A DNA stretch of 64,000 nucleotides from NCBI RefSeq assembly GCF_013122565.1, contig NZ_CP053258.1. One strand, 5' to 3'. Below the pieces are notes generated by a model. The model was not told where the DNA came from and did not search any database. It saw nothing but the letters and a program-made list of their open reading frames with translations. Shown in pieces: positions 39,618-63,128 of this stretch. The first letter of the stretch is position 1, and each line of letters opens with the position of its first letter. Both the position numbers and the translations under genes were made by a program. Source of the stretch: Escherichia coli (GTDB taxonomy: Bacteria > Pseudomonadota > Gammaproteobacteria > Enterobacterales > Enterobacteriaceae).

Positions 39618-40799
39618 TCAAGAACGGCGTTTGGTTGCGGAGTCCATCCATACTGCCAGCAACAGAATCGCACCTTTAACGATATACTGCCAGAAGGTCG
39701 GTACATCCATCATACTCATACCGTTATCCAGTGAAGCCATGATGAATGCCCCCATTACCGCTCCAGCCACGCTCCCGACGCCGCCTGCCAGACTGGTGCC
39801 GCCAATCACGCATGCTGCAATTGCGTCCAGCTCGGCGATATTCCCCGCAGAAGGTGAACCAGCGCCAAGTCGAGAACTGAGGATTAATCCGGCGATGGCT
39901 ACCATTAATCCGTTAATAGCGAACACGGCAAGTTTGGTGCGTTCAACGTTAATGCCGGAGAGACGTGCTGCTTCCAGATTGCCGCCGATGGCATAAATGC
40001 GTCGTCCAAATGCCGTCCGCGTTGCCATAAACATTCCGCCGAGTAACAGCAACGTCAGCAGCAGAACAGGAGTGGGAACGCCACGATAATCATTCAACAG
40101 CCAGATTGCGCCTAATACGATGATAGCGGTTAAAGCCTGGCGACCGACTACTGCGGTAGAGGCCGGAGACTGCAAACCCAAAGCCTGACGGCGCATTCTT
40201 CCGCGCCATTGCCAGCCAACAAAAGCCATTAAGCCAAGCGCGCCAATGATGAAGCCGGTGCTGGCAGGTAGATAGCTTTGCCCAATTTGTGACATCGCGG
40301 CGCTGGTGGGGGAAACAGTCGTGCCGTTGGTAATGCCAATGAGTATGCCGCGAAATGCCAACATGCCCGCGAGGGTGACAATAAATGAAGGGACTTTGCG
40401 GTACGCGACCCACCATCCGTTCCAGGCACCGAGAAGCAGTCCCAGAACCAGCGTTACAATGATGGTAAGTGGCAAAGGCCAGCCTAACCAGACGTCGCAA
40501 ATCGCCGCGACGCCACCTAACAGCCCCATCATTGAGCCGACGGAAAGGTCGATTTCAGCAGAAATTATGACGAACACCATTCCTACCGCGAGGATGCCGG
40601 TAATCGCGGTCTGGCGTAACAGGTTGGAGACGTTACGGGCGCTTAAGTAGGCACCCTCGGTGGTCCAGGTAAAGAACAGCATGATTGCGATGATAGCTGC
40701 AATCATCACGAAGACCTGCAAATTTAGTGACTTCAGCCCGGAAAAGCCACCGGATGTCGGTACGGCCAATTTCACTTCAGACGGATTGCTTTTCGACAT
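39618..40799 (-). CDS. xylH: Xylose ABC transporter permease
   Basis: 393-aa polytopic membrane ORF; overlaps xylG end by 23 nt. Confidence 0.9.
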
Positions 40800-42318
40800 G
40801 ATGTTCGCTCCTCAATGCGGCTTCCATCACCTGCTCCTGAGTCAGGTTATGATTTATCAGGTTGGCTTTTAGTTTCCCTTCATGCATCACCAGTACACGA
40901 TCGCTAAGGCCGAGCACTTCAGGTAATTCGGAAGAGATGACAATAACGGCAATACCCTGCTGGACGAGTTGGTTAATTAATTTGTAGATCTCATATTTCG
41001 CGCCAATATCAATACCCCTGGTAGGTTCATCAAGAATGAGAATGCGCGGGTTGAGTAACAGACAGCGGGCGAGGATCGCTTTTTGCTGATTGCCGCCGCT
41101 CAAACGTCCAATAGCAAGGTCGGGGGACGACGTTTTAACTTTGAGTTGCTGGATTGATTCCAGAATACATTTTTGCTCTGCCGCGTCATCAAGCTGGCTA
41201 ATGCCACCGGTAAATTTATTGAGTGCGGCGAGGGTAATATTTTTACCAACCGCCATTACCGGAACGATGCCGTCGCGCTTTCTGTCTTCGGGGACCATCG
41301 CAATCCCCTGGGCGATGGCTTGCTGACAGTTACGAATATCTACCTGTTTGCCATCAATATAAATTTTTCCTTCCCATTGTCCGGGCCACACACCAAACAG
41401 GCACTGAATGGTCTCGGTACGTCCGGCACCAACGAGTCCGGCAATACCCAGTATTTCGCCACGTTTCAGGGAAAACGAGACATCATTAACTCGTTTAATA
41501 TGACGATTAACCGGATGCCATGCCGTCAGATGTTCAATACGTAATATTTCATCTCCGGTGGTATGTGGTTCATTAGGGTAAAGCGCGGTTAACTCTCGCC
41601 CGACCATCATGGTGATAATATCGTCTTCACTCATTCCGGCAGCATCACGCGTACCAATGTGCTGTCCGTCGCGAATAACGCAAATCGTATCGGAAATCGC
41701 TTTGACTTCGTTGAGTTTGTGCGAAATATAAATACAGGCGATACCGTGCTGTTGTAGATCGCGAATAATATCCAGTAAAACCGACGTTTCCTGCTCAGTT
41801 AATGAGGCTGTCGGTTCATCGAGAATTAACAAGCGCACCTGTTTATTAAGTGCCTTGGCTATTTCAACCAGTTGTTGTTGCCCAAGCCCTAAATCTCCCA
41901 CGCGGGTATCTGGTGAAATGGATAAACTGACCTGTGCGAGCAGCTTCTGACAGCGTAGCGTCATCAGGTCATAATCCATAATACCATTGTGGGTTATTTC
42001 GTTACCCAGGAAGATATTTTCCAGTACGGTCAATTCTTTCACCAGGGCCAATTCCTGGTGAATGATGGCGATACCTTTGCGTTCGGTATCGCGGATGTGA
42101 CTCGCCTGAATCTCTTCTCCCGCAAAAATAATTTCGCCTTCGTAGGAGCCATGGGGATAAATACCACACAGCACTTTCATCAGCGTTGATTTACCAGACC
42201 CATTTTCCCCACAGAGTGAGACGATTTCGCCAGCATTCAACCGCAAGCTGACGTTATCAATCGCCTTCACACTGCCGAAGGTTTTGGTAATGTTCTTCAT
42301 TTCAAGTAGATAAGGCAT
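40777..42318 (-). CDS. xylG: Xylose ABC transporter ATP-binding protein
   Basis: 513-aa ORF with two ABC domains (GENGSGKST; LSGGNQQK). Confidence 0.95.
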
Positions 42319-58970: not shown

Positions 58971-61304
58971 TTGGCCAACTCATCCTCACGATATTCCGTT
59001 CTGACTGCCGCCCACTGGGGGCCCATGCTGGTTGAAACCGACGGCGAAACCGTGTTTAGCTCACGTGGCGCGTTAGCCACAGGAATGGAAAATTCCTTGC
59101 AGAGCGCGGTTCGCGACCAGGTTCACAGCAATACGCGGGTACGATTTCCAATGGTGCGCAAAGGCTTTCTCGCGTCACCGGAAAACCCGCAAGGCATTCC
59201 TGGGCAGGATGAATTTGTTCGCGTGAGTTGGGATGAGGCGCTGGATCTTATTCACCAACAACATAAACGCATTCGTGAGGCTTATGGTCCGGCATCGATT
59301 TTTGCTGGTTCCTACGGCTGGCGTTCAAACGGCGTGCTGCATAAGGCCTCGACATTATTACAACGCTATATGGCGCTGGCAGGCGGTTATACCGGGCATC
59401 TGGGGGATTATTCGACCGGTGCGGCACAGGCGATCATGCCGTATGTCGTGGGTGGCAGCGAAGTTTATCAACAGCAAACCAGTTGGCCGCTGGTGCTGGA
59501 ACATAGCGATGTCGTGGTGTTGTGGAGTGCTAACCCACTCAATACGCTGAAAATTGCGTGGAATGCATCTGATGAGCAGGGGCTTTCTTACTTTTCCGCA
59601 CTGCGTGACAGCGGGAAAAAGCTGATCTGCATTGATCCAATGCGATCGGAAACCGTCGATTTCTTTGGCGATAAAATGGAGTGGGTGGCACCGCACATGG
59701 GCACCGATGTTGCGCTGATGCTGGGGATCGCCCATACGCTGGTGGAAAATGGTTGGCACGACGAAGCGTTTCTGGCGCGTTGCACCACGGGTTATGCCGT
59801 CTTCGCCTCTTATTTGCTGGGCGAGTGTGATGGAATAGCGAAAAACGCCGAATGGGCGGCAGGGATTTGTGGGGTTAACGCAGAGAAAATCCGCGAGCTG
59901 GCGGCTCTTTTCCACCAAAACACGACCATGCTGATGGCTGGCTGGGGAATGCAGCGCCAACAGTTTGGTGAGCAAAAACACTGGATGATCGTCACGCTGG
60001 CGGCAATGTTGGGGCAAATCGGCACACCCGGCGGCGGTTTTGGTCTTTCTTATCATTTTGCCAATGGTGGTAACCCCACGCGGCGTTCTGCAGTGCTCTC
60101 TTCCATGCAGGGCAGCTTGCCTGGCGGCACCGATGCGGTAGATAAAATCCCTGTTGCCCGCATTGTTGAAGCACTGGAAAACCCTGGTGGCGCATATCAA
60201 CACAACGGTATGAACCGACATTTCCCGGATATTCGTTTTATCTGGTGGGCGGGCGGTGCCAACTTTACTCATCATCAGGATACCAATCGCCTGATCCGTG
60301 CCTGGCAAAAACCGGAACTGGTGGTTATCTCCGAATGCTTCTGGACGGCGGCGGCAAAACACGCGGATATCGTTCTGCCTGCGACCACCTCGTTTGAGCG
60401 TAATGATCTCACCATGACCGGTGATTACAGTAATCAGCATCTGGTGCCGATGAAGCAAGTGGTGCCGCCACGCTATGAAGCGCGTAATGATTTTGATGTT
60501 TTTGCCGAGTTAAGTGAACGCTGGGAGAAGGGCGGTTATGCACGTTTTACGGAAGGAAAAAGTGAGCTGCAATGGCTGGAAACGTTTTATAACGTTGCCC
60601 GGCAGCGCGGGGCAAGCCTGCAGATTGAATTGCCGCCATTTACGGAGTTCTGGCAAGCCAACCAGTTAATTGAGATGCCGGAAAACCCGGACAGCGAGCG
60701 GTTTATTCGCTTCGCTGATTTTTGCCGGGATCCGCAGGCGCATCCATTAAAAACTGCCAGCGGTAAGATTGAAATCTTCTCGCAGCGTATTGCCGATTAC
60801 GCTTATCCGGATTGCCCGGGGCATCCAATGTGGCTGGAGCCGGACGAATGGCAGGGCAATGCCGAACCGGAACAGTTGCAGGTACTTTCTGCTCATCCGG
60901 CGCATCGTCTGCACAGCCAGCTGAATTACAGTTCTCTGCGCGAATTGTACGCGGTGGCAAATCGTGAGCCTGTCACCATTCATCCTGACGATGCCCAGGC
61001 GCGCGGCATACAAGATGGCGATACTGTTCGGCTGTGGAACTCACGCGGGCAAATTCTTGCCGGAGCGGTCATTAGTGAGGGAATTAAACCTGGCGTGATT
61101 TGCATTCACGAAGGGGCATGGCCGGATCTGGATTTAACCGCTGACGGTATTTGTAAAAACGGCGCAGTGAACGTGCTGACCAAAGATCTCCCCAGCTCGC
61201 GGCTGGGGAATGGCTGTGCGGGTAATACGGCGCTGGCATGGCTGGAAAAATACAACGGTCCGGAACTGACACTTACAGCGTTTGAACCACCGGCCAGCTC
61301 ATAA
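58971..61304 (+). CDS. bisC: Biotin sulfoxide reductase (molybdopterin oxidoreductase)
   Basis: 777-aa ORF with non-ATG (TTG) start in the track; DMSO-reductase-family motifs. Confidence 0.9.
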
Positions 61305-61713
61305 TCCAGGTGGGTAGTTGGGTTTCATCCTGCCATGCACAATCGACAATGTGAAAACCCTGCGCCTGGTAAAAATCTATCGCCGGTTGATTTTTTTGAT
61401 AAACCTCCAGCATCAGATGGGGATGGCGCTGCTGCACATACTGCATCAGCGCCTTACCAATACCGCGCCTGACGGCCTTCGGTGCGACAAACATCGCTGC
61501 CAGAAATCGGCCTTCCATAATGCTGACAAAACCGAGAAGCTTACCGTCTTCTTCCCAGACCCAGTTTTGCGCGTTGGCAAGATAGGCATCCCGCACCAGT
61601 GGAATGCAATCGCGCCAGTAATGCGCTTTTATAAAGGGATGCCCCCAGGTTGTACTTTCCAGCCACAGTTCGAGGATCGCGGGGAGTTCTGAACGTTGCG
61701 CTTCCCGAATCAT
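61273..61713 (-). CDS. yiaC: GNAT-family N-acetyltransferase YiaC
   Basis: 146-aa [38 protein letters not shown]...; 32-nt convergent overlap with bisC 3' end. Confidence 0.85.
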
Positions 61714-62273
61714 GGTTTATTTCCCGGATAGCAACAGCAGCCAACCACATGATCATTCACCAGCCCACATGCCTGCATAAAGGAGTAACAGATTGTGGTA
61801 CCGACAAACTTAAAACCACGTTTTTTCAGTGCCTTAGATAGGGCGTCGGAGGCGGGCGTAGATGTGGGGATTTCGCTCAATGTTGTGGCTTGTGTCACCT
61901 GTGGCTGATGATTTACGAACGACCAGACAAAGTCGGCAAATGGTTCGCCGTTCCGTTCCATTTGCAGGTACGCCCGCGCATTACCAATAATTGCCTGAAT
62001 TTTCCCTCGATGGCGGATAATCCCGGCGTCCTGTACCAGTCTTTCGACATCCTCTTCCTGCATTGCTGCGACCTTCACCGGATCGAACTGATGAAAGCTG
62101 GCGCGATAGTTTTCGCGTTTTTTGAGAACGGTGATCCACGATAACCCAGCCTGCTGCCCTTCAAGGCAGATCATTTCGAACAGTTTTTTACTGTCAGTTT
62201 CAGGCACGCCCCATTCATTATCATGGTAGGCAATATAAAGCGGGTCCTGACTCACCCAGCCGCAACGTTCCAT
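61710..62273 (-). CDS. tag: DNA-3-methyladenine glycosylase I
   Basis: ORF track 61710..62381; start trimmed to MERCGWVSQDPLYIAYHDNEWGVPETDSKKLFEM (187 aa). Confidence 0.9.
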   Translation of the reverse strand: MERCGWVSQDPLYIAYHDNEWGVPETDSKKLFEMICLEGQQAGLSWITVLKKRENYRASFHQFDPVKVAAMQEEDVERLVQDAGIIRHRGKIQAIIGNARAYLQMERNGEPFADFVWSFVNHQPQVTQATTLSEIPTSTPASDALSKALKKRGFKFVGTTICYSFMQACGLVNDHVVGCCCYPGNKP

Positions 62274-62429
62274 ACTTTCCCTCGCTATGTACCCGATCGT
62301 AAAAATTTCAGCCGCTTTTCTTGACGCATCGGTGAAAAAGTCAATATTTAATACAGGGCTACTATGCCCGATATCCTTCATACAATGACAATAATATTGC
62401 CGAATTCGGCTCTCCCTGGAGTCGTGTTA

Positions 62430-63128
62430 ATGATCATAAAAAAAAGCGGTGGTCGCTGGCAGCTAAGCCTGCTGGCGAGTGTGGTAATCAGTGCCTTTTT
62501 TCTCAACACAGCTTACGCCTGGCAACAAGAATATATCGTTGATACGCAACCCGGACATTCCACAGAGCGTTACACCTGGGATAGTGATCATCAACCTGAT
62601 TACAACGATATTTTGTCGCAACGTATTCAAAGTAGCCAAAGGGCGCTGGGACTGGAAGTCAATCTGGCGGAAGAAACCCCTGTGGATGTGACCAGCAGTA
62701 TGAGTATGGGCTGGAATTTTCCTTTATATGAGCAGGTTACAACCGGCCCGGTCGCGGCATTACATTACGATGGCACAACCACCTCGATGTATAACGAGTT
62801 TGGAGACAGTACTACCACGCTGACCGATCCGTTATGGCATGCCAGCGTGAGTACCTTAGGCTGGCGTGTTGACTCCCGGCTTGGCGATCTCCGTCCCTGG
62901 GCGCAAATTAGCTATAACCAGCAATTTGGCGAGAATATCTGGAAGGCGCAATCAGGCCTGAGCCGGATGACGGCGACAAACCAGAACGGCAACTGGCTGG
63001 ATGTCACCGTCGGCGCTGATATGTTGCTCAATCAAAATATTGCCGCCTATGCCGCGCTAACTCAGGCAGAAAATACCACTAACAATAGCGACTATCTGTA
63101 TACGATGGGGGTTAGTGCCAGATTTTAA
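62430..63128 (+). CDS. yhjY: Autotransporter-beta-domain-like outer-membrane protein YhjY
   Basis: ORF track 62364..63128; start tentatively at MIIKKSGGRWQLSLLASVVISAFFLNTAYA (signal peptide), 232 aa, ends ...GVSARF. Confidence 0.7.
   Translation: MIIKKSGGRWQLSLLASVVISAFFLNTAYAWQQEYIVDTQPGHSTERYTWDSDHQPDYNDILSQRIQSSQRALGLEVNLAEETPVDVTSSMSMGWNFPLYEQVTTGPVAALHYDGTTTSMYNEFGDSTTTLTDPLWHASVSTLGWRVDSRLGDLRPWAQISYNQQFGENIWKAQSGLSRMTATNQNGNWLDVTVGADMLLNQNIAAYAALTQAENTTNNSDYLYTMGVSARF

Follow-up and report, generated by a model that had tools for sequence, protein, structure and literature searches.

Tail-to-tail coding overlap of bisC and yiaC in Escherichia coli and across Enterobacteriaceae

In the 64,000-nt stretch of Escherichia coli DNA analysed here (contig NZ_CP053258.1, hereafter the window), the genes bisC and yiaC converge and each ends inside the other. 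This raises the question of whether both reading frames really extend to their annotated stops, where the two transcripts then finish, and whether the arrangement serves regulation. In our assessment, the locus is very probably an ordinary and ancient overlap in which two genuine protein-coding genes meet tail to tail, and for which no unusual mechanism is needed. Both frames are translated to their annotated stops, so that BisC and YiaC each have their last ~10 residues encoded in the overlap, and purifying selection on each tail has kept the arrangement across Enterobacteriaceae.

Two protein ends in 32 shared nucleotides

On the + strand, bisC occupies 58971..61304 and encodes biotin sulfoxide reductase (777 aa, TTG start at 58971, TAA stop), with a RefSeq coding length that agrees in both K-12 and strain RM9387. 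On the − strand, yiaC occupies 61273..61713 and encodes a 146-aa protein that carries the RefSeq product name of a GNAT peptidyl-lysine N-acetyltransferase (TAA stop at 61275-61273). By the table of open reading frames (ORFs), the 32 nt from 61273 to 61304 are common to both genes, and in the sequence bisC stops with TAA at 61302-61304 and yiaC with TAA, which appears as tta on the + strand, at 61273-61275. Read on the + strand, the shared segment gives the BisC tail (L)TAFEPPASS plus its stop; read on the − strand, it gives the YiaC tail (I)MSWPVVQTL plus its stop. Codons pair as bisC1:yiaC1, bisC2:yiaC3 and bisC3:yiaC2, a phase reported to be the commonest among convergent overlaps of more than 4 nt. 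Together, the ORFs, the sequence and the per-site entropy described below mark 61273..61304 as a dual-coding overlap on both strands.

RefSeq carries the identical 32-nt overlap in K-12 MG1655 (yiaC at 3713652-3714092 (+), bisC at 3714061-3716394 (−)) and in RM9387, and it is therefore a long-standing reference annotation; the overlap is already known, as part of the standard E. coli K-12 annotation. The convergent overlap at 61273..61304 that the sequence-only reading had claimed is thus borne out by the ORFs, the stop codons and RefSeq. Of the 5426 complete E. coli genomes, 5422 match a 901-nt query spanning the junction, with identities of 96-99% and the genes always labelled bisC / yiaC / tag. 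As a 3'-3' overlap is set by stop codons alone, misannotation of a start codon is impossible as its cause.

Both protein tails have counterparts in their wider families. The C-terminal 170 aa of BisC align to the ends of DMSO/TMAO reductase structures (E = 1e-47 to 1e-49), and the tail LTAF(D/E)PP falls at the very C-terminus of these reductases. The last residues align to Rhodobacter sphaeroides DorA (1EU1, ..EKYAGAPVTVTVFDTPK) up to residue 778 of 780, as well as to the C-termini of R. capsulatus DMSO reductase and of TMAO reductases. On the strength of these alignments, we read the BisC tail as ancestral and family-typical, and so not as an extension. YiaC, a GNAT protein (Pfam PF00583/PF13673), aligns at equal length with its paralogue YjaB (2KCW, 147 aa). 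Its orthologues measure 146-148 aa and share a conserved C-terminus, PTWIMSWQADQTP, in which P134, T135, W136, M138, W140, Q144 and T145 are invariant across 20 YiaC orthologues. In its AlphaFold2 model (pLDDT of 94.6), the last β-strand spans residues 133-140, residues 141-146 are coil, and residues 144-146 have a pLDDT below 50. From the tail alignments and this model, what YiaC draws from the overlap is the end of its last strand plus a floppy tail, and what BisC draws from it is its C-terminal tail. An origin of the overlap by stop-codon loss and 3' extension appears to be excluded for bisC/yiaC, because both tails are ancestral family features.

Conservation and dual-coding constraint across Enterobacteriaceae

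We sampled 80 loci, one per species, across Enterobacteriaceae, with the genera Escherichia, Salmonella, Citrobacter, Klebsiella, Raoultella, Enterobacter, Lelliottia, Kosakonia, Kluyvera, Atlantibacter, Siccibacter and others represented. In all 80 species loci, a convergent bisC or a bisC remnant terminates within yiaC. The length of the overlap was scored by regex in 73 sequences, a set that takes in the window and two E. coli reference loci, and was 32 nt in 40 of them and 38 nt in 31, with 2 sequences at 23 nt; for loci outside this set, the coordinates of tblastn matches were consistent with an overlap. None of the 80 species loci carries a bisC or yiaC frame that ends ahead of the overlap, the kind of orthologue for which the sequence-only reading had suggested looking, and the shortest yiaC variant found still overlaps bisC by 23 nt. 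Ten stop-free antisense codons in a single genome are not improbable; their retention throughout the family exceeds chance.

The variation in length has a simple basis at the level of codons. The bisC stop, whether TAA or TGA, always faces the codons for Ile137-Met138 of YiaC (ATT/ATC ATG), which are invariant, and the yiaC stop faces a pair of Leu-Thr codons of BisC (CTT ACN). As BisC ends in ..L-T-L-T-A-F-D-P-P-x-x-x, two such Leu-Thr pairs are available. Where the second Leu is encoded by CTT, yiaC stops there, giving a YiaC of 146 aa and an overlap of 32 nt; where it is encoded by CTA or CTG, a change that leaves BisC as it is, yiaC runs on to the first pair, giving 148 aa and 38 nt. The yiaC stop thus shifts between the two pairs through synonymous changes of a bisC Leu codon, a coupling in which the choice among synonymous codons in one gene sets the end of the other. 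In the two species with a 23-nt overlap, a CAA>TAA change leaves YiaC 3 residues shorter and turns a BisC Asp into Asn.

Per-site entropy across 78 aligned species bears on whether both frames are translated. Third positions of yiaC, which face second positions of bisC, carry 0.22 bits in the overlap versus 1.22 bits outside it, and third positions of bisC, which face second positions of yiaC, carry 0.65 bits versus 1.32 bits. Variation at the wobble positions thus collapses within the overlap, which indicates that both frames are under purifying selection, and we take this collapse as the signature expected of two translated frames. BisC is the more constrained partner, and YiaC residues 139, 141, 142, 145 and 146 vary precisely at bisC wobble changes.

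These observations decide against an artefact of annotation or sequence, by which BisC or YiaC would truly terminate before the overlap. We found nothing that speaks for such a reading; the protein database does contain a few YiaC entries of unusual length, truncated or extended (135, 147 and others), and yiaC stops earlier in the two species with the 23-nt overlap. It is at odds with 3' ends that are fixed unambiguously by stop codons, with the retention of the ends of both frames over 80 species, with the homology of both tails to paralogue tails or solved structures, and with the dual-frame constraint seen within the overlap. The comparison with orthologues and paralogues rules it out, and we give it practically no credence.

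Some loci have departed from the common pattern. In Intestinirhabdus alba (locus L061, 3929..4093), an internal deletion leaves bisC as a 54-codon remnant of the BisC N-terminus that abuts yiaD; yiaC is intact, as are the nucleotides once common to it and the bisC tail. In GCA_002983575.1 (locus L085, 1019..3351), two ORFs of 667 aa and 116 aa are called in place of one bisC, probably owing to a frameshift or because it is a pseudogene; the synteny with tag is retained, as are the 32 nt of overlap with a GNAT gene of 146 aa. A search for distant orthologues with the C-terminal 110 aa of BisC returned mostly fragments; of two contexts examined from it, one is L085 and the other (L086) is a degraded TorZ-like paralogue without a GNAT neighbour.

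Probable transcript ends inside the partner gene

The sequence-only reading had claimed that the overlap leaves no room for terminators between bisC and yiaC, and this part stands. As no terminator fits between the genes, any bisC and tag-yiaC transcripts are complementary over at least 32 nt, and in the absence of intergenic space each transcript would end inside the other gene, as published data show for tag-yiaC. With this gene layout, the two mRNAs are bound to overlap as sense and antisense. The further claim of the sequence-only reading, that interference or antisense pairing is thereby implied, is not supported, as termination needs no intergenic site and a regulatory role for the mRNA overlap is not required.

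For tag-yiaC, a published experiment places termination inside the partner gene, via Rho (PMC7815308). In supplementary file 2 of Adams et al. 2021 (PMC7815308), MG1655 3714344 (+) is entered as a region of Rho termination and classed as antisense to bisC. Upstream/downstream reads there numbered 90/23 in the absence of the Rho inhibitor bicyclomycin and 60/112 in its presence (Rho score of 7.3, p of 5.5e-14). Mapped via RefSeq coordinates, this peak lies 252 nt beyond the yiaC stop, at ~61021 in the window on the − strand, a position that is approximate because the study used 800-nt windows and read counts were low (90 reads per 800 nt in LB at the yiaC region; PMC7815308). The tag-yiaC transcript would accordingly carry a 3' untranslated extension on the − strand, at 60900..61272, running antisense through the bisC 3' end.

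The composition of this RNA is in keeping with such a route. From +1 to +260 after the yiaC stop, the yiaC-sense RNA is C-rich and G-poor, with a C/G ratio of 1.15-1.80, where the window as a whole has a median of 1.00 and a 90th percentile of 1.54, and C-rich untranslated RNA of this kind fits the loading of Rho after ribosomes leave. Ribosomes would thus come off tag-yiaC mRNA at the yiaC stop, the untranslated C-rich RNA would recruit Rho, and transcription would stop ~250 nt into antisense bisC. In having a bicyclomycin-sensitive region in antisense bisC after C-rich, G-poor RNA, yiaC is like other cases in which Rho suppresses antisense read-through past stop codons (PMC7815308), with the qualification that its position is known at low resolution and for the yiaC-sense direction only.

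In the opposite direction, a terminator scan predicted no intrinsic terminator beyond the bisC stop on the + strand. A T7 run at ~61389-61397 (~85 nt past the bisC stop) was considered as a bisC terminator and rejected, being the antisense of the conserved YiaC YQKN codons and having no good stem. A stretch in which C exceeds G, at +120..+320 after the bisC stop, is compatible with Rho. Given that bisC is without a predicted intrinsic terminator, we infer that its transcript ends within antisense yiaC/tag, by Rho or by polymerase collision, and collision-driven bidirectional termination is a possible contributor at bisC/yiaC.

The junction itself shows little sign of RNA structure. Folds of 141-146 nt on both strands were no better than shuffles (z = −0.36 and +0.71), and no Rfam family was found in 60000..62600 at E ≤ 1. 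Adams et al. list no Term-seq 3' ends labelled yiaC, bisC or tag in supplementary files 1 and 3 (PMC7815308).

One element inside bisC deserves separate consideration. The palindrome CCCCAGC N5 GCTGGGG at 61188..61210 sits within the bisC codons DLPSSRLGN, and on the − strand it gives the hairpin UUCCCCAGC-CGCGA-GCUGGGGAG followed by AUCUUUGG, a perfect GC-rich stem of 8-9 bp located 63-85 nt past the yiaC stop. As read from its sequence, it is a candidate at which tag-yiaC transcription might pause or, as at a weak intrinsic terminator, end. It lies ~90 nt upstream of the bisC stop and so cannot be a terminator for bisC, and it is without a T-tract on the + strand. The stem has all 9 pairs in 46 of 78 species and 7 or more in 61, with a few compensatory synonymous changes (for example, in loci L024, L070, L075 and L058); in Klebsiella/Raoultella, the hairpin is lost and the overlap persists.

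If this hairpin were the real terminator or pause site of tag-yiaC, termination would be mainly intrinsic and not Rho-dependent, and the ordinary-overlap reading of the locus would have to accommodate termination or pausing that could be partly intrinsic, 63 nt past the yiaC stop. The site was flagged by the terminator scan, although the 7 sites of the scan are no excess over the 5.2 ± 2.5 of shuffled sequence. The stem is stable locally (~−15.7 kcal/mol), but the U-tract that follows it is weak, with 4 U in 8 nt, and in its 141-nt context the fold reaches only the z of −0.36 given above. Most genera keep the hairpin, and several lineages show synonymous changes that compensate one another within the stem. 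Its covariation is supported versus shuffles, but controls with slid partners score similarly. Further, no Term-seq 3' end is reported at the hairpin, strong read-through upon bicyclomycin treatment is seen farther downstream (PMC7815308), and transcription of bisC must itself cross the palindrome. We therefore regard a mainly intrinsic end at this hairpin as unlikely.

Bidirectional terminators between convergent genes have reportedly been described by Ju et al. in 2019. The bisC/yiaC locus is alike in being a convergent pair with a hairpin-forming palindrome in the zone of transcript overlap, and it differs in that the palindrome lies upstream of the bisC stop, with no intergenic A-tract, hairpin and U-tract. 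Indeed, with zero intergenic space, no GC-rich hairpin with an A-tract and a U-tract was found past both stops.

Antisense regulation and comparison with other junctions

The products of tag-yiaC act in alkylation repair and lysine acetylation, and that of bisC in the repair of oxidised biotin and methionine. Retention of the overlap throughout the family, which purifying selection on the two tails accounts for, is compatible also with selection for antisense regulation. That the retained overlap and the hairpin together reflect selection for a cis-antisense switch between tag-yiaC and bisC, by polymerase collision or duplex cleavage, seems to us highly improbable.

A functional excludon, in which the overlap and the transcript extension were selected for antagonism between BisC and Tag-YiaC through collision of RNA polymerases and/or cleavage of the duplex by RNase III, is the broader form of this proposal. 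In its favour, ExcludonFinder used 58 RNA-seq data sets to compile 165 convergent excludons for MG1655, and yiaC-bisC is among them, with detection in at least 50% of these transcriptomes (PMC12288877). Such a listing is, however, essentially automatic for transcribed pairs with overlapping coding sequences. The likeness of bisC/yiaC to excludons is one of transcript overlap (PMC12288877), whereas their defining trait is mutually exclusive expression through interference or RNase III; in the literature searched, we found no reciprocal-expression, double-stranded RNA or RNase III data for yiaC-bisC. A model of collision-driven termination has been published for convergent E. coli genes (bioRxiv 10.1101/2022.10.23.513370), the overlap is retained in 80 of 80 species, and a palindromic hairpin in the zone of transcript overlap is largely conserved, with some compensatory synonymous changes. 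Against this, purifying selection on the two protein tails fully explains the conservation, the hairpin is gone in Klebsiella/Raoultella despite the persisting overlap, and the antisense extension is curtailed by Rho in a region whose LB read counts are low (PMC7815308). We consider a functional excludon very unlikely, and if regulatory antagonism were true, it would add one further excludon case and no new principle.

The ordinary-overlap reading also agrees with what is known of similar pairs. Such pairs are common: E. coli has 75 convergent overlapping pairs (Huvet & Stumpf 2014, PMC4161906), and bisC/yiaC resembles them in having its genes on opposite strands, each stop within the last codons of the partner, a short overlap and the 1:1/2:3/3:2 phase. 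The overlap is more conserved than its flanks and, at 32 nt, longer than the modal convergent overlap of 4 nt; nothing essential differs. We see in bisC/yiaC a clean textbook case, with two conserved tails co-encoded on opposite strands throughout the history of Enterobacteriaceae. In the 50 kb of K-12 around the locus, 3 of ~10 convergent junctions overlap, namely yiaC/bisC (32 nt), ysaE/hokA (24 nt) and yiaU/yiaV (4 nt). The latter two (3720400-3720600 and 3752963-3752966 in NC_000913.3) are also in the ExcludonFinder list (PMC12288877).

Upstream of yiaC on the − strand lies tag (61710..62273), by the ORF table and RefSeq the gene for 3-methyladenine DNA glycosylase I. The tag stop and the yiaC ATG share 4 nt (ATGA, 61710..61713). 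An ATGA overlap of stop and start is a classic arrangement for translational coupling, and tag-yiaC is therefore likely to be an operon. In each of the 80 species loci, tag precedes yiaC, and the sequence of the tag/yiaC junction varies among them.

A same-strand junction elsewhere in the window, which the sequence-only reading had set beside bisC/yiaC as a related case, was confirmed by the ORFs and the K-12 annotation: xylH (39618..40799) and xylG (40777..42318), both on the − strand, share the 23 nt at 40777..40799. Inside xylG, AGGAG stands 8 nt before the xylH ATG as a good Shine-Dalgarno sequence, and given this spacing the long xylG/xylH overlap is probably genuine and not a miscalled start codon.
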